Source: an uncultured bacterium
GTDB taxonomy: Bacteria > Patescibacteriota > Minisyncoccia > Phycocordibacterales > GCA-2401445
Reading direction: 5' to 3'
Assembly (NCBI GenBank): GCA_937952265.1
Contig: CALFYW010000055.1
Span: forward strand, 149,030-213,029
Length of the DNA stretch: 64,000 nt
Shown: positions 9,255 to 46,171 of the stretch, in pieces
How positions within the stretch are numbered: position 1 is the first letter of the stretch
How the letters are laid out: each line of letters starts with the position of its first letter
Notes under the pieces: model-generated
What the model saw: only the letters and a program-made list of their open reading frames with translations
Told to the model about the DNA's origin: nothing
The model's database searches: none
Position numbers and translations under genes: made by a program

Positions 9255-10853
9255 CTACTCTGTCGTTTGGAGTTCTACAATGAAAGAAGAACCTTTCCCT
9301 TCCCCTTCCGATTCAGCCCATACTTTACCTTTATGTGCCTCAACAAGTTGGCGCGCAACATAGAGTCCGAGCCCTGTTCCAAGTACATTTACCTTGTTTG
9401 CGTTATATGCCCTGCTGAATTTTTCAAATAACACGGCAATCGTTTCTTTAGACATGCCAATTCCTGTGTCTTTGATCGTAACACGGATTTTCTGCCCCAT
9501 TCGCTTGATAGTTACTACCACTTCCCCATGAGGAGTGTATTTAATTGCATTATCAATCAGATTACCAATCACTTGCTTCATCTTTCCCATATCAGCATGT
9601 ACAAAAAACCTCGATGCTTCAGGTGGGTTAAAGTAGATTTTAATCCCTGCCCGCTTTGCGGTTGGATCGCTCTCTTTTATCACTTCATCGATAAGCTCTT
9701 TCATATCAAAGCGAGAAAAATGAAATTTCATTGTTCCTTGTTCAATACGAGATACGTCCAAAAAATCATTAACCACAAACGTGAGAGAGTTTGCTGATTG
9801 GAAAATACGATTGATAGCTTCCCGTATTTTTTCTTGAGCTATTTCTCCAAACGAGCCCTCGAGGAGGAGCGAAGAATAGCCCTTGATAGCGGTAAGCGGT
9901 GCCCTAATCTGATGTGTTGCAATGGATATGAATTCTGATTTTTGCTTATCCAATTCCCGCAATTTGCTATTGGTAGTTTTCAAATCATCTGCCAAAGACT
10001 CAATCTTCTCTCTTGAGTCTACTTCTCGATAGACCCCCTTTATGAGTAAATAACTAAAGATTGTGATTGCGATAAGAATCAAAGCCTTTATTAAGATGTT
10101 TGTTGGTGATTCTTCAATAAATATTTCAACAAAAAGTACGGTGATAATAATAATTGAAAAAAGCTCTGTAACAAGAACTTTTATATTAAATAAATGGTAT
10201 TTTAAAATAGCGATAAAAATAGCAGAAACTAGAATTACTGAAAATAGAGGACCAACCCATGTGAATTCAAAAATTTTAAATACTGGCAAAATTAAATTTG
10301 TAAAGAGTGCCAAAGAAGAAGAGATTATTAATCCTATAGAGATTAATCTGATCTGATCTTTTGATTTTTGAGATGCGTTTTCGTGTTGTTTTAAAAGTAG
10401 AAGATAAGCACCAAAGAAATAAAATATTACTAAAAGCTGATACAAGGGATATCCATTTTTTAGTTCATAGGTAGCAGTGGTTGCCTCCATCGGAGGAGCA
10501 ATGATTGAGTCAGTTAGGAATAGGAAAAATAACATTACACAAAATGGTATAAGTACAGAAAAATAAAATAATCTTCCGGAGAATATTTTATTAGGGAAAA
10601 TATTAGAAAATAAGAAAACAATTAATCCTGTAAATAACGCTGTCGAGTGTGTCCATGCCAGCCATTCAATGTCTAAAAGATAGCTTCTAGAGTAAAACCC
10701 TACAATGCTTACACACCAACCAGCCACTCCTAGAGATAAAAAACCGAACAAAATATTGAAAGAATTTCTCAGCCCACGTGAGAGAATGATAACAGAAAGT
10801 ATTATGTTTATAACAACAGTTATAAGTAGTAGTGGTATGATGATTTCTTGCAT
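9255..10853 (-). CDS. Sensor histidine kinase with multi-pass N-terminal membrane domain (HisKA + HATPase_c)
   Basis: At least 8 predicted TM helices, then H-box ATHQIRAPLTAIKGY, N-box and G-boxes (DTGIGM...GTGLGLYVARQLVEAH). No response regulator is adjacent in the window. Confidence 0.9.
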   Translation of the reverse strand: MQEIIIPLLLITVVINIILSVIILSRGLRNSFNILFGFLSLGVAGWCVSIVGFYSRSYLLDIEWLAWTHSTALFTGLIVFLFSNIFPNKIFSGRLFYFSVLIPFCVMLFFLFLTDSIIAPPMEATTATYELKNGYPLYQLLVIFYFFGAYLLLLKQHENASQKSKDQIRLISIGLIISSSLALFTNLILPVFKIFEFTWVGPLFSVILVSAIFIAILKYHLFNIKVLVTELFSIIIITVLFVEIFIEESPTNILIKALILIAITIFSYLLIKGVYREVDSREKIESLADDLKTTNSKLRELDKQKSEFISIATHQIRAPLTAIKGYSSLLLEGSFGEIAQEKIREAINRIFQSANSLTFVVNDFLDVSRIEQGTMKFHFSRFDMKELIDEVIKESDPTAKRAGIKIYFNPPEASRFFVHADMGKMKQVIGNLIDNAIKYTPHGEVVVTIKRMGQKIRVTIKDTGIGMSKETIAVLFEKFSRAYNANKVNVLGTGLGLYVARQLVEAHKGKVWAESEGEGKGSSFIVELQTTE

Positions 10854-37583: not shown

Positions 37584-38120
37584 TTATCGACGCGGGCCAA
37601 GTAAACAATAGTCCCATGCACCCTGGTCTGAAGACGGTAAATTAAAGGTGCTTACTTCTGAGAAAAATTGTAGAACGTACTCATAGTCGTTAATGGAGAT
37701 CTGGCCTCCGTCACACGTCCACCCTGATCCAACTTGTCGAGAATATTCAAAACAACGGTTTGAGAGAGGGTCCTGCGGAAGTGTATCCATATAGCCTCCG
37801 CTCACTAATGGAGCAAAAACTTCGTCAAATCCTTGGCCGGGGTATTGTGTATAACCACACGGATTAGGATCATCATTAGGTCTACTTGAGTAATGCCCAT
37901 TAGTAGCTCCTGGGGGATATTGACCCGTGCTTGCATGGTATACATGTAATGCCGATTGGAGTTGTTTTAATTCACTAATTCTTTTCGTATCACGAGCCTT
38001 GGCACGAGCCGTATCTAAACCAGTAAGCACGATTGAGGAAAGCAGACCAATAATTGCAACAACTACTAAAAGTTCGATGAGTGTAAAACCTGATTTTTTT
38101 TTCTGAACAAAAATCGTCAT
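37584..38120 (-). CDS. Type IV pilin / pseudopilin-like protein with prepilin N-terminal methylation motif. ORF track start is 38213; Met at 38120 is preferred.
   Basis: KKKSGFTLIELLVVVAIIGLL class III signal peptide and hydrophobic helix. Confidence 0.8.
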   Translation of the reverse strand: MTIFVQKKKSGFTLIELLVVVAIIGLLSSIVLTGLDTARAKARDTKRISELKQLQSALHVYHASTGQYPPGATNGHYSSRPNDDPNPCGYTQYPGQGFDEVFAPLVSGGYMDTLPQDPLSNRCFEYSRQVGSGWTCDGGQISINDYEYVLQFFSEVSTFNLPSSDQGAWDYCLLGPRR

Positions 38121-38136
38121 AGGTATGTATTTATAA

Positions 38137-38397
38137 TTATAATACGGGAAGCCCAGGATCAGAAATCTGTTGAGGTTTTGAGCTAGCAGGATCTTCCCCC
38201 CCAAACCCCACAAAAAAAGTAGTTACAATCATGACCATTGCTAACCCAATGAGTATGATATTCGCCTGTGAATTTGTTTTCGCAAGCTTTGCTTTAATGA
38301 GCCATTGCACCATTCTAGGTGCTTTAGCGGATGGTTCAATTCGGCTATAGAGAATCTTCCGCTCACTACTTTCTCCTTCAAATTGTACGTCTACCAT
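38137..38397 (-). CDS. Small single-pass membrane protein, paralog A (MVDVQFEG family)
   Basis: 86 aa with a C-terminal TM. Shares its N-terminal motif and about 28 nt of DNA at the start region with the adjacent ORF. Confidence 0.5.
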   Translation of the reverse strand: MVDVQFEGESSERKILYSRIEPSAKAPRMVQWLIKAKLAKTNSQANIILIGLAMVMIVTTFFVGFGGEDPASSKPQQISDPGLPVL

Positions 38398-38725: not shown

Positions 38726-41700
38726 ATGCCGTCTCATTTTGTACATCTACATGTCCACACCCACTATAGCCTCCTGGGCGCGCTTCCCAAAATCCCCGAA
38801 TTAGTTAAAAAGGCAAAAGAATACGGCATGTCCTCCCTTGCGATCACTGATAACGGAAACTTATACGGAGCAATTGAATTCTATAAAGAGTGTAGGAAGG
38901 CCGATATTAAACCTATTATCGGTGTTGACGCGTATGTGGCAGCACGTACGCGCCATGACAAACAAACCGGTATTGATAATCGAAGAACCAGAGTGGTGCT
39001 TCTTGCAAAAGATCTTGAAGGATACCGTAATCTAATCTCTCTTATTACCAAAGCGAATCTTGAAGGTTTTTACTATAAACCACGAATTGATCTTGAATTG
39101 CTCGCATCACATCGAAGTGGCTTAATTGCAATTATTCCTGCTTCAAACAGCACTCTTTCCATAGCAGTTGAACAGAATGATCGCCAGGAGATCGAGCGGA
39201 TTACCACGTGGTATCAAAAGTATTTTCGAGAAAAGGTATATGTAGAGATCACCCATCACCCACATATTGAAGGACATACTGAGAAGATGGAGCGTCTCTA
39301 TAAAATTGCACAGGAGGCTAGCATTCCTGTCGTTGCATCGCAAAACGTCTTTTATCTTAACAAAGACGATCAAAAAGCCTGGGAAACGCTTCTTTCTGTA
39401 CAAACCAATCAAGCAAGCCAGGATCGGCAATTCGAAGCACAGGATGACTTCTCTTTTATTTCCGGAGAAACCATTGAATCTTTCTTCAAAGAAAATCCGA
39501 AGGCGGTTGAAAATAGTGCAATAATTGCAGAGCAGTGCAATCTCGACCTCTCTCTCGGTTCATGGGTATTCCCTCAATATGTCACCGAAAAAGGCCAATC
39601 GTACGAATCAGCATTAAGGAGTCTGGTTGAGAAGGGGTTGGTTGAACGATCTATTACAAACACCAAGGAAGTGAGTGATCGAATTGATTATGAACTTGAT
39701 ATTATTAATCGAAAAGGATACGCCCCCTATTTCTTGGTTGTTTCAGATCTCTTGCAATACGCTCGAAAGAATAAGATTTTTAGCACTACCCGTGGATCAG
39801 CTGCTGGCTCACTTGTCTCATATTTAACTTTTATTACCACCGTAAATCCGCTCGAGTACAAACTCCCCTTTGAACGATTTCTCAATCCACATCGCCCATC
39901 ACCTCCAGATATTGATATGGACATCGCGGATAATCGCCGTGACGAAATGATTGAGTATGTACGTAACCGATATGGCGACGATAAAGTTGCCCAGATTGGA
40001 ACATTTGGAACTATGATGGCCCGGGGATCAGTGCGCGATGTTGCTCGGGCACTAGGATTCCCTTATGAGGTAGGAGACCGTATTGCCAAATTAATCCCTA
40101 TGGGATCGCAAGGGTTTCCTATGACGCTTGATATTGCCCTTGAGAAGATCCCTGAATTGGCATCGATGTACAAAAAAGACGCACCAACAAAGCAAATTAT
40201 TGATATGGCAAAGAAGATTGAAGGATGTGCGCGCCATATCTCAGTGCACGCAGCGGGTGTCGTCATTGCCCCAAAGCCACTTACTGATTTTGTACCCCTC
40301 CAACTCGACCCTAAAGGAGAAAATAAAGTTATTACTCAATACGACATGCATGCTGTTGAGGATGCGGGTTTGCTTAAATTCGACTTTCTTGGAATCCGAA
40401 ATCTCTCTATTCTCGCGGATGCCGTTGAAAAAGTAGCATTACTCGAAGGAAAAGAGATCGATATTGAGAATATTCCGCTTGATGATAAAGCTACGTTTAA
40501 CCTTCTTGCGCAAGGAGAGACGACGGGGATTTTTCAGCTTAATGGGTCGGGTATGACGCGCCATCTTAAAGAGCTCCAACCAAGCACGATTCATGACATC
40601 AATGCAATGGTTGCGCTCTATCGCCCAGGACCTATGGAGGTAATCCCTGAATATATTCGCCGGAAAAACAATAAAGCGCTCGTCTCATACCTTGACCCAC
40701 GAATGAAGCGCTACCTCGAAGAATCCTATGGTCTGATTGTCTATCAGGATGACCTTCTCTTTTCCGCCGTTGAACTTGCAGGGTATAGTTGGGCTGAAGC
40801 AGATAAATTTCGAAAAGCAGTTGGGAAAAAAATTCCCGCGGAAATGGCAGCTCAAAAAGAAAAATTCAGCAAAGGAATTGTTGAAAATGGACAAACAAAA
40901 GAATTTGCTGAAAAACTCTGGAAACTGTTTGAGCCTTTTCAAGCCTATGGTTTCAACAAAGCCCATGCCGCAAGCTATGGCCGTGTTGCCTACCAAACCG
41001 CATACATGAAAGCAAATTATCCGGCAATCTACATGGCTTCAATACTCACCGCGGAATCTGGAGACGTTGAAAAAATCGGTGAAGTCGTTGCAGAGTGTAG
41101 TCGAATGAATATCCCCGTACTTCCACCAAGCATCAATGAAAGTTTTGAAGGGTTCACCGTGGTTAAAGGAGACATCGATAGTATTCGATTCGGGCTCACG
41201 ACAATTAAAAATTTTGGCGAGGGTATCGCGCACGTTATCATACAAGAAAGAGAACAACACGGACGTTTCAAATCACTCATGGATTTCCTCGAACGTATTA
41301 CAGACCGAAATCTCAATAAGAAATCACTTGAATCTTTAATTAAAGCTGGGGCTCTCGATGATTTTGAAGATCGTGGCCGCCTTCTCGGAAATCTCGATCT
41401 CTTGCTTGCATTTAACCGTGAGAAAATTAAACAAGACCAAAACCAAAACTCCCTATTTTCGACCTCATCCGAGAGTGGGCTCACTCTAAGTGCTACTAAT
41501 CCCATACCTGCTATTGAACGGCTCCAATGGGAAAAAGAGCTTCTCGGCCTTTATATTTCTGGACACCCGCTTGAATCCTACCAAAAATCACTTCATGGTA
41601 TTCCAAGCATTGATCAGGTAAAGAGTAATCTTCGTGAAGGCGTTACAGGTGTTGTTGCAGGTATTGTGGAAGAAGTGCGAATGGTCTACACCAAAAAAAA

Positions 41701-41911
41701 TGAGGCGATGGGTTTTGTTCGCATTTCTGACACTTCCTCAGGGATTGAGATGGTATTTTTCCCTAAAGTTTATCAAGAATATCAAGAGCACCTCTCTCCA
41801 GGAAATGCAATTAAGATACAAGGGCGACTCTCTAACCGAAATGGAACCCAAAGCATTATTGTTGAGAAACTAAAACCGCTTGAAAGAGACACCGAGCGCA
41901 CGAGCGTGTAA
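38726..41911 (+). CDS. dnaE: DNA polymerase III alpha subunit
   Basis: N-terminal PHP domain (HLHVHTHYSLL), polymerase core and OB domain. 1061 aa. Confidence 0.95.
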   Translation: MPSHFVHLHVHTHYSLLGALPKIPELVKKAKEYGMSSLAITDNGNLYGAIEFYKECRKADIKPIIGVDAYVAARTRHDKQTGIDNRRTRVVLLAKDLEGYRNLISLITKANLEGFYYKPRIDLELLASHRSGLIAIIPASNSTLSIAVEQNDRQEIERITTWYQKYFREKVYVEITHHPHIEGHTEKMERLYKIAQEASIPVVASQNVFYLNKDDQKAWETLLSVQTNQASQDRQFEAQDDFSFISGETIESFFKENPKAVENSAIIAEQCNLDLSLGSWVFPQYVTEKGQSYESALRSLVEKGLVERSITNTKEVSDRIDYELDIINRKGYAPYFLVVSDLLQYARKNKIFSTTRGSAAGSLVSYLTFITTVNPLEYKLPFERFLNPHRPSPPDIDMDIADNRRDEMIEYVRNRYGDDKVAQIGTFGTMMARGSVRDVARALGFPYEVGDRIAKLIPMGSQGFPMTLDIALEKIPELASMYKKDAPTKQIIDMAKKIEGCARHISVHAAGVVIAPKPLTDFVPLQLDPKGENKVITQYDMHAVEDAGLLKFDFLGIRNLSILADAVEKVALLEGKEIDIENIPLDDKATFNLLAQGETTGIFQLNGSGMTRHLKELQPSTIHDINAMVALYRPGPMEVIPEYIRRKNNKALVSYLDPRMKRYLEESYGLIVYQDDLLFSAVELAGYSWAEADKFRKAVGKKIPAEMAAQKEKFSKGIVENGQTKEFAEKLWKLFEPFQAYGFNKAHAASYGRVAYQTAYMKANYPAIYMASILTAESGDVEKIGEVVAECSRMNIPVLPPSINESFEGFTVVKGDIDSIRFGLTTIKNFGEGIAHVIIQEREQHGRFKSLMDFLERITDRNLNKKSLESLIKAGALDDFEDRGRLLGNLDLLLAFNREKIKQDQNQNSLFSTSSESGLTLSATNPIPAIERLQWEKELLGLYISGHPLESYQKSLHGIPSIDQVKSNLREGVTGVVAGIVEEVRMVYTKKNEAMGFVRISDTSSGIEMVFFPKVYQEYQEHLSPGNAIKIQGRLSNRNGTQSIIVEKLKPLERDTERTSV

Positions 41912-41920
41912 TTGACCAGC

Positions 41921-41952
41921 ATAAAAAAACGCCCAGAGAGGGCGATTTTTTA
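41921..41952. terminator. Bidirectional intrinsic terminator after dnaE, overlapping the stop of the convergent ORF
   Basis: aaaaaaacgccc-agaga-gggcg-atttttta: GC stem flanked by an A tract and a T tract. Confidence 0.5.
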
Positions 41953-42501
41953 TGCGTAACGCTTTAGTTGCATTTTTCTAAATCGAATCATTCGAGCTGA
42001 TTGGAGAACTTTCTTTCCTTTCTTTATAACAAGCGCGCTTAAAAGCAAAATGATGCTTCCGAGCACCGCATGAGAGGTGGTCAGCGTATATCCGGTATAC
42101 GGAATTTGGGTAAGCGGAACTCCTGTTATTAAAGCACTCGTAACTATTTGGCTTGTGTGAATATTACTCGTAACAATACCACTCGTTACGATTCCGCTTG
42201 TTACGATATTTCCGGCAGTAATTCCGCTACTCGTAATGGATCCATGAGGAGAAACCCTACTCGTTTTAATATGGCTTGTTTTGATATTTCCCGGAATAGA
42301 GCTTCCCGTTCCAGGAGAAGAAGTAATAATACCGGAACCTAACACACCGCTCGTATAGACACGTTCCTGAGGATCAATTTCTCCTACACGAATAGCACTC
42401 GTATAGATACAAGAAATACGGCAAGCCTCTGAAGAAGCCCCGCTTATTCCCGGGAAGAGTAGGATAAGCACGATGAGTGTCGAGAGAATAATTTTTTTCA
42501 T
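41950..42501 (-). CDS. Secreted repeat-containing surface protein; candidate sortase substrate (signal peptide, TS-rich tandem repeats, C-terminal IPYTG-like motif, TM and basic tail)
   Basis: N-terminal signal peptide MKKIILSTLIVLILLFPGISGA. Repeats ITSSGITAGNIVTSGIVTSGIVTSNIHTSQIVTS. C-terminus ...IPYTGYTL...LGSIILLLSALVIKKGKK resembles a cell-wall sorting signal. Translationally coupled to the sortase gene. Confidence 0.6.
   Translation of the reverse strand: MKKIILSTLIVLILLFPGISGASSEACRISCIYTSAIRVGEIDPQERVYTSGVLGSGIITSSPGTGSSIPGNIKTSHIKTSRVSPHGSITSSGITAGNIVTSGIVTSGIVTSNIHTSQIVTSALITGVPLTQIPYTGYTLTTSHAVLGSIILLLSALVIKKGKKVLQSARMIRFRKMQLKRYA
42130..42300. repeat. Intragenic tandem DNA repeats (units about 15-18 nt, such as actcgtaac/actcgttacgat) encoding the TSGIV peptide repeats
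   Basis: Repeated actcgt(a/t)ac motifs visible at about 42137, 42166, 42181, 42196, 42226 and 42258. Confidence 0.5.
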
Positions 42502-42504
42502 AGA

Positions 42505-43092
42505 TTAATTTTTTGGATATACCTTAATGAGCACCCCTTCAACAATATACCGGTCATTTTTATCCCCTAACGAATTACACGTTACGAGAGTAAGATCGAT
42601 ATCTTTCTCTGAAAAATCAATGTAACTGTCTTCTACCTTAGAGAGCGACACTCGCTTCACGGAGTATTCATAAACATGAGTTTGAGAAGAGATGATGATT
42701 TGCGCTCCTGTTTTCAAGTGATTAATACCATTGAATGCTTTATAGTTTTGGTTATAGACCACAGGAAGATGGCTAGTGTGCCCAAAGATAAGCATATTGC
42801 CATCCTCTCCCAAAAGCGGAGAGTGGGGGTAGCGTACCGCTCCTCGGGTAAGCGCTTGGTCAAGTACCGCGATATTCTGCTCAACTGGATTCTCTATTGA
42901 AACTGAGATTCCTTGTGAAGGAATAGAGAGACGCAACGGAAGCGCTGAGAGAGAATCAAAATCCTGAGTAGAGATATTTTTGGAGGTTGCGGGCGCTACG
43001 AAAAAGAAAAGAAAGGAGAAAAGCGCCACGAAAAACATCCAGAGCAAAAGAAGCCCTGTTTTTCGGCACAGATTTTTAATAACATTATTCAT
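42505..43092 (-). CDS. Sortase (class A/E-like transpeptidase). ORF track start is 43161; Met at 43092 is preferred because a consensus promoter lies immediately upstream.
   Basis: Catalytic His (LIFGHTSH), Cys (LTLVTCNS) and Arg (DRYIVEGVL). N-terminal TM anchor. Confidence 0.8.
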   Translation of the reverse strand: MNNVIKNLCRKTGLLLLWMFFVALFSFLFFFVAPATSKNISTQDFDSLSALPLRLSIPSQGISVSIENPVEQNIAVLDQALTRGAVRYPHSPLLGEDGNMLIFGHTSHLPVVYNQNYKAFNGINHLKTGAQIIISSQTHVYEYSVKRVSLSKVEDSYIDFSEKDIDLTLVTCNSLGDKNDRYIVEGVLIKVYPKN

Positions 43093-43098
43093 ATATAT

Positions 43099-43127
43099 AT
43101 TATACACTATATATATGGATATGTCAA
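43099..43127 (-). promoter_or_regulatory. Consensus sigma-70 promoter for the sortase operon, producing a leaderless or near-leaderless mRNA
   Basis: Minus strand reads TTGACA, then a 17-nt spacer, then TATAAT, then atatat, then the sortase ATG. Confidence 0.55.
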
Positions 43128-43184
43128 TTATTAGGTAGTGGTTTACCACCCTAATAAACACACGGCTTGCTTAGTAACTAAATC

Positions 43185-43245
43185 CCCTCCCCACCAGTCA
43201 ACCTGCCAGGTTGACTGGTGGGGAGGGCTTATTTGCTGGTTTTTA
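43185..43245. terminator. 43-bp GC-rich perfect palindrome (21-bp arms around a single C) followed by a T run; strong bidirectional terminator-like element at the left edge of the GC-rich island
   Basis: ccctccccaccagtcaacctg c caggttgactggtggggaggg, then cttatttgctggttttt. Confidence 0.6.
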
Positions 43246-43282
43246 AAGTATGCCCGAGGTCAAATCTCAGGCAGGATGCTAA

Positions 43283-43311
43283 TTGACACTATTATAATAA
43301 TCTTGTAGTAT
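43283..43311 (+). promoter_or_regulatory. Putative sigma-70 promoter driving the GC-rich gene
   Basis: TTGACA, then 17 nt, then TAGTAT. It sits in AT-rich DNA immediately before the base composition switches to GC-rich at about 43320. Confidence 0.4.
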
Positions 43312-43319
43312 TTTTTTAG

Positions 43320-43463
43320 TTACGCACCTTGTAAGAAGCAAAGTATCTGCCATAGCAGAAAGTGTCTGATTCCTCGGGCCTTTTCTGCTATGGCAAACCT
43401 GCAATAAGCAGTCAGGCCCACTGGCAAAAATCGCGACTTTCTGTCGCAGAAGAGGAGACTACC
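43320..43463 (+). ncRNA. Structured 5' leader of the GC-rich gene: 13-bp long-range inverted repeat gccatagcagaaa/tttctgctatggc plus smaller stem-loops, ending in a strong Shine-Dalgarno AGGAG
   Basis: Inverted repeats at 43340-43352 and 43383-43395. ctgcaataagcag mini-hairpin. AGGAG sits 6 nt before the ATG at 43464. Class unknown; possible riboregulator or attenuator. Confidence 0.3.
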
Positions 43464-44036
43464 ATGAGTGAGGTTACTCTCGATGTCGGCCTGGCTTACA
43501 AGATTAAGCAAGCTCTTTCCCGCAACGGAATCCCCGACGTTGCCGACCTTGATTGGCTGGTAACTGGCGACAACATCGCCAAGATGCGTCGGGTGCGACT
43601 CGGCCACGCCGAAATCGTCATCACCGAGCATGTGATCGACTGCGACGCCGAGCCGCTCATCCCGGACCGCTGGTATGTCGAGGAGCACCAGAAAGGCGGT
43701 GCATTCAAGTGGAGCGCCGAAGGCGTGACGCTCTATCTCGACAAGAGGCAGAAAAACGGAAAGTGGATCGATGGAAACGAACTCCGCCAAGCGCTGGCAA
43801 TGAAGCCAGTACTGAACGCCAATGTTCTCGATTACCTGCTCGCCCATCCGCACCTCATTCCCGAGGAGTGGAAGGACAAGGCCGTTTTCTTTTGGGGAAC
43901 GATCTACCGCGAGTGGAACGGCGACCCCTACGTCCGTTACCTCGACTGGTACGGCGATAGGTGGGGCTGGAGCGCCCGCTTGCTCGACGGCGACTGGAGC
44001 GATGTCTACAACACCGCCGCGGTTCCTGCAAGCTGA
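43464..44036 (+). CDS. Hypothetical Trp-rich protein (190 aa) encoded in a GC-rich (55-67% GC), compositionally foreign segment
   Basis: Strong RBS and ATG. ORF MSEVTLDVGLAYKIKQALSRNGIPDVADLDWLVTGDN...YLDWYGDRWGWSARLLDGDWSDVY. Followed by a canonical intrinsic terminator. No family recognised. Confidence 0.6.
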   Translation: MSEVTLDVGLAYKIKQALSRNGIPDVADLDWLVTGDNIAKMRRVRLGHAEIVITEHVIDCDAEPLIPDRWYVEEHQKGGAFKWSAEGVTLYLDKRQKNGKWIDGNELRQALAMKPVLNANVLDYLLAHPHLIPEEWKDKAVFFWGTIYREWNGDPYVRYLDWYGDRWGWSARLLDGDWSDVYNTAAVPAS

Positions 44037-44074
44037 ACTCGACTTTGGATTTTTGAGTTGTTGCACTTGAATCC

Positions 44075-44104
44075 TTTGTCCTTGGCTCCGCGCTTCGCGC
44101 GGGG
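44075..44104 (+). terminator. Intrinsic terminator of the GC-rich gene
   Basis: 10-bp GC stem ggctccgcgc / gcgcggggcc with a ttc(g) loop, followed by TTTTTT. Confidence 0.65.
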
Positions 44105-44116
44105 CCTTTTTTGAAG

Positions 44117-46171
<2,055 letters not shown>

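Follow-up and report, generated by a model that had tools for sequence, protein, structure and literature searches.

Whether a sortase gene and the gene beside it amount to a complete device for fixing one particular protein to the cell surface is the question raised by a short segment of contig CALFYW010000055.1, which comes from an uncultured Patescibacterium and of which a stretch of 64 kb (64,000 nucleotides, here called the window) was analysed. Patescibacteria (candidate phyla radiation, CPR) are ultrasmall bacteria, mostly epibionts, and attachment to the host is a role generally attributed to their surface proteins. The segment contains a two-gene unit together with a promoter and a terminator, all on the minus strand, and we regard it as probable that these elements constitute a self-contained sortase–substrate operon, in which a leaderless transcript would give rise to a sortase and to a repeat protein that is attached to the cell wall via the motif IPYTG. 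An earlier note on this DNA had pointed to the promoter, the sortase and the substrate, and the positions and features that it gives for them are right.

Judged by its sequence, the 195-residue product of the first gene (42505–43092, minus strand; 195 codons, with the ATG at 43092 and the TAA at 42505) is a genuine sortase that profile models assign to none of the named classes. It matches the Pfam family PF04203 (Sortase) with 65 bits against a cutoff of 26.6 and the generic sortase model TIGR01076 of NCBIfam with 41.8 against 39.35. An N-terminal membrane anchor (residues 14–35, nt 42988–43053) precedes the catalytic domain, which starts at about residue 51 and comprises the catalytic residues His105 (within IFGH, 42778–42780), Cys172 (within LVTC, 42577–42579) and Arg181 (42550–42552), all of them encoded on the minus strand. 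These three residues are invariant in an alignment of 28 sequences (A1), composed of the sortase and 27 homologues at 34–44% identity; together with the Pfam match, this confirms the sortase with a His, Cys and Arg triad that the earlier note had recognised. The homologues are found in Patescibacteria and form a clade that is specific to that group.

An AlphaFold2 model built on A1, with a mean predicted local distance difference test score (pLDDT) of 83, has the predicted β-barrel fold of sortases. In a Foldseek search against the PDB, 130 chains matched the model at E ≤ 0.001, and 50 of the 50 matches listed are sortases; the top ones are streptococcal class A, Thermobifida fusca class E and Clostridium perfringens class D enzymes with E-values of about 1e-10, and the TM-scores of the matches, normalised to the target, range from 0.6 to 0.8. 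The best sequence-profile match in the PDB is 2kw8 (54 bits). Classification with profile hidden Markov models (HMM), a check that had been suggested beforehand, thus succeeded at the level of the generic sortase and failed at the level of the class, as no class model of NCBIfam comes near its cutoff: class E scores 37.8 against 160, class D 34.7 against 165, class C 31.2 against 160, class F 22.2 against 166 and class GN (TIGR03784) 19.2 against 158, and the class A model is not among the NCBIfam matches of the sortase. A longer, GTG-initiated open reading frame (ORF) of 218 residues, starting at 43161, was rejected: the promoter itself would have to supply the coding sequence of its extension, the homologues begin approximately 14–20 residues ahead of their membrane helix, and the public annotation has 195 residues.

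The second gene (41950–42501, minus strand; 183 codons, ATG at 42501) encodes the presumed substrate, and the public gene calls give the same 195-residue sortase and the same 183-residue substrate. Along the latter, a signal-like N-terminus, a segment with two Cys residues, a tract of pentapeptides, the IPYTG motif, a hydrophobic stretch and a basic tail follow one another. The signal-peptide-like N-terminus MKKIILSTLIVLILLFPGISGAS (residues 1–23, 42433–42501, minus strand), read directly from the sequence, consists of MKK, a hydrophobic core and PGISGAS; a single-sequence AlphaFold2 model of the substrate places a helix at residues 2–15. The sorting motif IPYTG (residues 133–137, 42091–42105, minus strand) is preceded by V-P-L-T-Q and followed by the hydrophobic segment AVLGSIILLLSALVI (residues 145–159, nt 42025–42069, minus strand) and by the K/R-rich basic tail KKGKKVLQSARMIRFRKMQLKRYA of 24 residues, starting with KKGKK (residues 160–183, nt 41953–42024, minus strand). 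In the same model, residues 142–182 form a confident helix, and residues 20–140 have a pLDDT below 50.

The tripartite C-terminus that characterises LPXTG anchors is, hence, present in the substrate, with Ile instead of Leu at position 1, and anchor models for LPXTG give weak, sub-threshold matches over residues 128–164. Within the 64-kb window, no other ORF combines PxT[GAS] with a subsequent hydrophobic C-terminus, and the substrate ORF directly adjoins the sortase gene. A secreted neighbour with an IPYTG-like motif, a transmembrane helix and a basic tail had been described in the earlier note, and for the motif, the helix and the tail, residues 133–183 bear this out. The designation of the motif as a non-canonical LPXTG variant is fair, but modest, since P, T and G are kept; an LPYTG-bearing relative passes the LPXTG_anchor model.

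That IPYTG is a sorting-type motif, and not a chance string, follows from its recurrence beside related sortases, from the enrichment of PYTG in these loci and from its co-variation with the sortase clades. Scanning one genome per species yielded 80 loci that encode a related sortase (cited below by their L numbers where needed), which are labelled Patescibacteria, Paceibacterota, Parcubacteria (Kaiser-, Adler-, Nomura- and Campbellbacteria), “uncultured Saccharibacteria” (a generic label) or uncultured bacterium. The search for IPYTG-type motifs in sortase-adjacent genes of related genomes, proposed in the earlier note, found them in 63 of these loci: an ORF in the sortase's neighbourhood carries the pattern [LIVF]-x-[LI]-[S/A/D..]-x-[V/I/L/M/A/T]-P-Y-T-[G/A], with a hydrophobic segment within a few residues, and this partner nearly always lies downstream of the sortase on the same strand. 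The protein of the window meets the sortase in the same way, with the extended motif ahead of a hydrophobic segment and encoded beside a member of this sortase clade. The first scoring of partners required the motif within 140 residues of the C-terminus, and in the loci that it left without PYTG, no other C-terminal motif was found. Contig ends cut short most of the 17 loci without a partner: in 14 of them, fewer than 3 kb follow the sortase, and of all 80 loci only L049 and L085 have a full flank and yet no partner. The partner in L029 (L029:1776-3893) has IPQTG in an otherwise typical context (FLYLSQIPQTG; FLYLSQIPQTGLSLGP), so that Tyr at position 3 is a strong preference rather than a requirement.

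Across 39 distinct tails, P, Y and T never vary; 38 of the tails have the G, 37 an L at position −3 and 31 a V at position −5. The resulting family consensus V-x-L-[S/T/A]-[A/Q/S]-[V/I/L/M]-P-Y-T-G accommodates the V-P-L-T-Q-I-P-Y-T-G of the window, and an unrelated metagenomic protein (P0079) has the identical string LTQIPYTG. Counted over six-frame ORFs of at least 100 residues from the loci, PYTG occurs 72 times, approximately 68 of these in the context of motif plus hydrophobic segment; 21 control tetramers, including other PxTG strings, occur 0–12 times each, and the reversed control GTYP 25 times. In a neighbour-joining tree of the sortase domains, the clades coincide with signal subtypes—VTLSxVPYTGLEL, VYLS[SQD]xPYTGL.., LYLSQIPYTGL[DE]L and VSL[SA]QIPYTGFEA—which is the pattern expected if enzyme and site co-evolve, and the sequences support such co-evolution. 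The LPYTG-bearing relative mentioned above (L012) passes TIGR01167 (LPXTG_anchor) with 20 bits against 15.9, and PKD or Ig-like domains, as are typical of surface proteins, occur in other PYTG partners. The PYTG signal itself is covered by none of the Pfam and NCBIfam models run on the partner proteins. A profile search with the alignment of the C-terminal signals retrieved 20 proteins, all annotated as “hypothetical protein”, a number that is not to be taken as a census of the family. In the literature searched, no paper links PYTG, VPYTG or IPYTG with a sortase; a 2026 preprint on a CPR pilus deals with sortases as background only. Taken by sequence, the neighbouring gene is very probably the substrate of the sortase.

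The control regions of the unit are as compact as its coding regions. The σ70-type promoter (43099–43127, minus strand) consists of TTGACA (43127–43122), a 17-nt spacer and TATAAT (43104–43099), and 6 nt (ATATAT) separate it from the sortase ATG. The perfect TTGACA-17-TATAAT ending 6 nt before the ATG that had been noted earlier is thereby verified: the consensus score is 12 out of 12, and the exact form occurs once in the 64-kb window. Sites with at most one mismatch to the consensus number two in the window, compared with 0.41 expected from shuffled sequences. The −10 hexamer occupies positions −12 to −7 relative to the A of the sortase ATG, i.e., the usual distance from a transcription start, so that the transcript probably begins at or next to this A. 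It is, thus, plausible from the sequence that the sortase mRNA is leaderless.

This arrangement is a general habit of the genome and not peculiar to the sortase operon. The hexamer TAnn[AT]T begins exactly at −12 in 7 of 50 genes of the window and in at most two at any other position between −60 and −6, and Shine-Dalgarno cores are rare among the window genes. Examples of genes with the hexamer at −12 start at 10853, 12336, 30143, 43092, 55029 and 59409, all on the minus strand. A TTGACA-17-TAnnnT promoter also stands 6–10 nt before the sortase ATG in the relatives L003, L006, L017, L025, L028, L041 and L044. The −12 peak, the scarcity of Shine-Dalgarno sequences and the similar promoters of orthologous sortase genes make the earlier inference of leaderless initiation a reasonable one. 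In leaderless genes of Actinobacteria and Deinococcus, the −10 box lies 6–7 nt before the start codon (the “bacterial leaderless” class of GeneMarkS-2). The window resembles these in that TAnnnT at −12 to −7 is combined with the lack of a Shine-Dalgarno sequence and recurs across the genome; it differs in that the host is a Patescibacterium. In the literature searched, leaderless mRNA and Patescibacteria seldom occur in the same paper, and where one such paper touches on the subject, it does so in passing.

The substrate ATG follows the sortase stop codon after 3 nt (TCT), and a Shine-Dalgarno sequence is absent; based on this gap and this absence, it is plausible that translation of the substrate is coupled to that of the sortase by re-initiation. 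Downstream, 6 nt after the substrate ORF, an intrinsic-terminator-like hairpin (41923–41944, minus strand) is composed of CGCCC-TCTCT-GGGCG (41944–41930) and a subsequent T-run. The convergent dnaE gene (38726–41911, plus strand) shares this hairpin, which also reads as a terminator on the plus strand; on the other side, the unit is flanked by gyrB (44117–46162, minus strand). As a whole, the operon is tidy and represents a known system in a variant specific to its lineage. In its logic it is, in modest terms, ordinary: an ordinary-looking sortase with one orphan substrate.

If the unit works as we propose, the consensus promoter would give a transcript starting at or next to the first ATG, from which the first gene would yield a sortase held by its N-terminal membrane anchor and exposing the catalytic domain on the outer side, and the second gene would be translated by re-initiation 3 nt past the sortase stop codon. 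By analogy with LPXTG systems, the substrate would be exported via the Sec route and retained in the membrane by its C-terminal helix, cleaved between Thr136 and Gly137 with formation of a thioester through Cys172, and its ectodomain of approximately 113 residues transferred to an amino group of a peptidoglycan precursor, resulting in covalent fixation to the wall. A wall acceptor is plausible because the window also encodes a family-4 glycosyltransferase (862–1917; of the Pfam family that includes MraY) and a D-Ala-D-Ala carboxypeptidase (1914–2984). A role of the substrate as a filament or an adhesin, as raised in the earlier note, is speculation.

Set against the characterised sortase systems, the pair comes closest in outline to class A SrtA and its LPXTG substrates, as known from Staphylococcus, Streptococcus and Bacillus anthracis. 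The enzyme shares with SrtA the N-terminal anchor, the His-Cys-Arg residues and a TLxTC-type signature (LTLVTC), the predicted sortase fold, the streptococcal SrtA structures among the top Foldseek matches and 2kw8 as the top profile; the substrate shares the order of signal peptide, PxTG, helix and basic tail. The differences are that the class A model is missing from the NCBIfam matches and that the class models which do match are far below their cutoffs, that position 1 is I or V (I, V, L or M in the relatives), that Tyr at position 3 is near-invariant and the residues upstream of the motif (V-x-L-S-x) are conserved as well, at four positions in the relatives, and that there is one paired substrate, not obviously many scattered ones, in a Patescibacterium and not a Firmicute. 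Class E (Actinobacteria, LAxTG) and class D have the best NCBIfam scores, T. fusca SrtE and C. perfringens SrtD are among the top structures, and a variant motif is used there, too; however, the scores reach approximately one quarter of the cutoffs of 160–165, and Pro is kept at position 2, unlike in LAxTG. The class GN (“marine”) sortase of TIGR03784 offers a parallel in that one sortase serves one adjacent target with a lineage-specific variant motif, but it differs in score (19 bits against 158), motif, taxon and target family.

Several observations speak against wall attachment through IPYTG. Given that no class cutoff is reached, the acceptor—wall or other protein—is unreadable from the class. 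The general anchor models remain below their thresholds on the substrate (PF00746 13.6 against 20, NF033073 16.8 against 48, and TIGR01167 unreported), and its ectodomain is without homologues and without a confident structure model. In a word-indexed search of 5.8 billion clustered proteins, the substrate found itself alone, and an exhaustive HMMER search of 1.84 billion representatives returned only low-complexity pentapeptide look-alikes with LLTGG, LVWSG or IPTSG repeats. L049, the closest sortase relative with a full flank, has no partner gene there. Finally, in most relatives the motif is followed by 80–344 residues that are more conserved than a disposable signal; judged by their sequences, such long tails fit poorly with a mode of “cleave and discard” and may indicate a different use of the motif.

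These tails deserve closer description, as they are the most unusual feature met in the analysis and the basis of two alternatives. In the relatives, the number of residues after the PYTG motif falls into groups of 22–50, 80–112, 131–164, 213–268 and 307–344, and these length classes track the sortase clades. The tail ends are conserved: they read ..IDPFIxSQIxR in the shorter class, and in the longest class a helical domain ends in ..SPFTGVKLALAQAFE (also ..FTGVKLALAQAFE). No Pfam or NCBIfam model matches the long tails, examples of which are found in L031:6449-9748, L039:1511-5386, L011:7634-9667 and L014:7806-8846. In the protein of the window, 46 residues follow the motif, which places this protein in the short group that looks like classical signals; its sortase branches deeply in the tree, close to those of the Campbellbacteria-type loci L069 and L089, where the partners continue for 29 residues past the motif. 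The long tails of the relatives leave the reading of the window operon itself unaffected.

What they do suggest, tentatively, is that the operon could be the minimal member of a new, Patescibacteria-specific sortase class, in which cleavage fixes the ectodomain and at the same time frees a functional, membrane-tethered cytoplasmic domain. We consider this possible rather than likely; to our knowledge, no such mechanism exists among characterised sortase substrates. If it were true, the genetically paired and co-evolving partners would be defined by V-x-L-S-x-[VI]-P-Y-T-G, and the freed domain, in most members a conserved transmembrane and cytoplasmic part of 80–344 residues, could serve, e.g., in signalling or assembly.

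The same tails have a second possible explanation, namely that PYTG plus helix is an uncleaved juxtamembrane module and the sortase acts elsewhere, or acts on the module for regulated shedding or signalling. This would account for the conserved cytoplasmic end of the 80–344 residues in most relatives, for tails that are unmatched by any Pfam or NCBIfam model and for a window protein that stays under the thresholds of the LPXTG anchor models. It is, however, hard to reconcile with P, T and G being essentially invariant and placed 4–8 residues ahead of the helix, with a motif that is almost confined to the neighbourhood of the sortase, and with sortase clades that co-vary with it; furthermore, the short-tailed relatives (22–50 residues) look like classical sorting signals, one of them passing TIGR01167, and the tail of the window protein amounts to 24 basic residues without a conserved domain. 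We hold this explanation to be unlikely.

According to a third alternative, the sortase is a pilin polymerase that links copies of the repeat protein head to tail, Thr136 to a Lys of the next subunit, and so builds a covalent surface fibre in the manner of class C. Class C pilus loci, e.g., the pneumococcal rlrA islet, contain pilins with the variants IPQTG, VPPTG and YPxTG. The similarity lies in the sortase adjoining its substrate gene or genes, in the tolerance of Ile or Val at position 1 and in the presence of two substrates in some relatives: a dedicated sortase beside a single small substrate is reminiscent of pilus loci, two PYTG proteins flank the sortase in L040, L042, L047, L053, L066 and L083, which resembles a pair of major and minor pilins, and the mature protein of the window has two Lys residues, in the units IKTSH and IKTSR. 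The model of the sortase, in contrast, has no lid helix: between the membrane helix (3–31) and the barrel, there is only a helix of 4 residues (47–50), the pLDDT drops below 50 at residues 36–44, and confidence is also low in the flanking linker, which extends to about residue 50. In the structural matches, class C chains rank below those of classes A, E and D; the class C HMM gives 31 bits against a cutoff of 160; and the substrate sequence contains neither a YPKN-like pilin motif nor an E-box, nor is an Ig-like pilin fold predicted. Polymerisation into a fibre is, in our view, improbable.

The pentapeptide tract of the substrate raises a question of a different kind, since the earlier note had attributed it to DNA tandem repeats of 15–18 nt and had seen in it a candidate for slipped-strand length variation. 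The tract (residues 58–132, 42106–42330, minus strand) comprises approximately 14 TS-rich I-x-T-S-x units, among them IKTSH, IKTSR, ITSSG, IVTSG (twice), IVTSN, IHTSQ and IVTSA. At the peptide level, the period of five is evident, with identities of 0.38, 0.34 and 0.33 at lags 5, 10 and 15 as compared to about 0.05 at other lags. At the DNA level, the description is borne out only in part, and the repeats are too degenerate for slippage: Tandem Repeats Finder detects no array in the substrate gene, even at a score of 30; adjacent units in the 15-nt registers are 60–80% identical; no exact DNA repeat within the gene exceeds 10 nt, and the one of this length is not tandem; and the two IVTSG units are encoded by ATCGTAACAAGCGGA and ATCGTAACGAGTGGT, with three synonymous differences. 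We conclude from the sequence that the repeat is periodic at the peptide level only, where it is maintained by selection on the protein, and that there is no hypermutable DNA tract. As to the fold, PF00805 (Pentapeptide-repeat) does not appear in the Pfam scan of the substrate at E ≤ 0.1, and a β-solenoid or a pentapeptide-repeat fold is an idea only.

Eight contigs with the gene, from at least four samples, all encode the identical 183-residue protein and differ from the window by 0–2 substitutions in 4.1 kb; as they represent one population, this invariance says little on variation in copy number. The PYTG proteins of L003:5427-6320 and L005:5427-6320 contain a 21-residue unit GWDTVGYYDMSSPTYDxGYDx, encoded by an exact 63-nt unit, twice, and the otherwise identical protein of L004:5427-6257 contains it once. 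The difference, which concerns a long exact repeat of a kind that the window tract lacks, reflects either polymorphism or assembly collapse. A change in repeat number, or such a collapse, does, thus, occur in the class of sortase-neighbouring proteins. That the tract of the window is a contingency locus, where slipped-strand mispairing at 15-nt repeats alters the length or phase of the surface protein, is exceedingly improbable: the 15-nt periodicity of the coding sequence and the two-versus-one copies in that different PYTG protein speak for it, and the missing array, the divergence of adjacent units, the short non-tandem exact repeat and the different codons behind the same peptide units speak against it, as does, weakly because of the single population, the identity of the protein in the eight contigs.

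As regards the surroundings, the gene order pheT-gyrB-X-sortase is common to relatives whose sortases are 43% identical, and in L049 it is gyrB-X-sortase...dnaE; this conservation shows that the sortase locus is old and vertically inherited. In the window, the slot between gyrB and the sortase promoter is occupied by an island (43320–44100) of 57% G+C in a genome of 42% G+C. It has long ORFs on both strands; the one of 224 residues on the plus strand (43362–44036) looks more protein-like, and the public call is the 248-residue ORF on the minus strand. Searches of Pfam, NCBIfam and PHROG gave no match for the island ORF, which is unrelated to the divergently transcribed protein that fills the same slot in relatives and combines a transmembrane segment with a CARDB-like part. 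The island may be a foreign insertion. Between it and the sortase promoter, a perfect palindrome with arms of 20 bp (43185–43227; CCCTCCCCACCAGTCAACCTG.CAGGTTGACTGGTGGGGAGGG) is unique in the window and terminator-like on both strands, with weak T-runs. Rfam models gave chance-level matches only on 41800–44200.

In relatives, a conserved divergent gene lies directly upstream of the sortase (L003:3141-3911, L006:3109-3909 and L049:1915-3309, all on the minus strand). Its product is an N-terminally anchored, Tyr/Asn/Thr-rich protein with a faint CARDB-like match, which is absent from the window and which may be part of the same surface module. Between the sortase and the PYTG protein, some relatives, such as L003 (4696-5286) and L006 (4711-5223), encode a small Cys-rich secreted protein of 170–196 residues without a Pfam match, and this protein, too, has no counterpart in the window. 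At 37584–38213 (minus strand), 0.5 kb upstream of dnaE, the window encodes a 209-residue protein with the type IV pilin N-terminal methylation motif PF07963, which indicates that the organism also has type IV pilin-like surface proteins.

A sortase family is present in more than half of the CPR genomes (Meheust et al. 2019, PMC6744442). In the libraries and the literature searched, neither a recognition motif nor a cognate substrate of a CPR sortase was found. Read from the sequences, a sortase clade particular to this lineage, paired with a cognate [V/I]PYTG signal, would be a new annotation for a poorly understood phylum, and it provides a predicted sortase–substrate pair together with a predicted [V/I]PYTG motif and its conserved flanks. 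In addition, the leaderless signature is flagged genome-wide in a lineage in which translation initiation has hardly been studied. With the motif, Paceibacteria-type genomes can be searched for candidate wall-anchored proteins, and the pair might serve as an orthogonal combination of sortase and tag for protein engineering. Importantly, the PYTG pair bears on the question of how CPR bacteria display their surface proteins.

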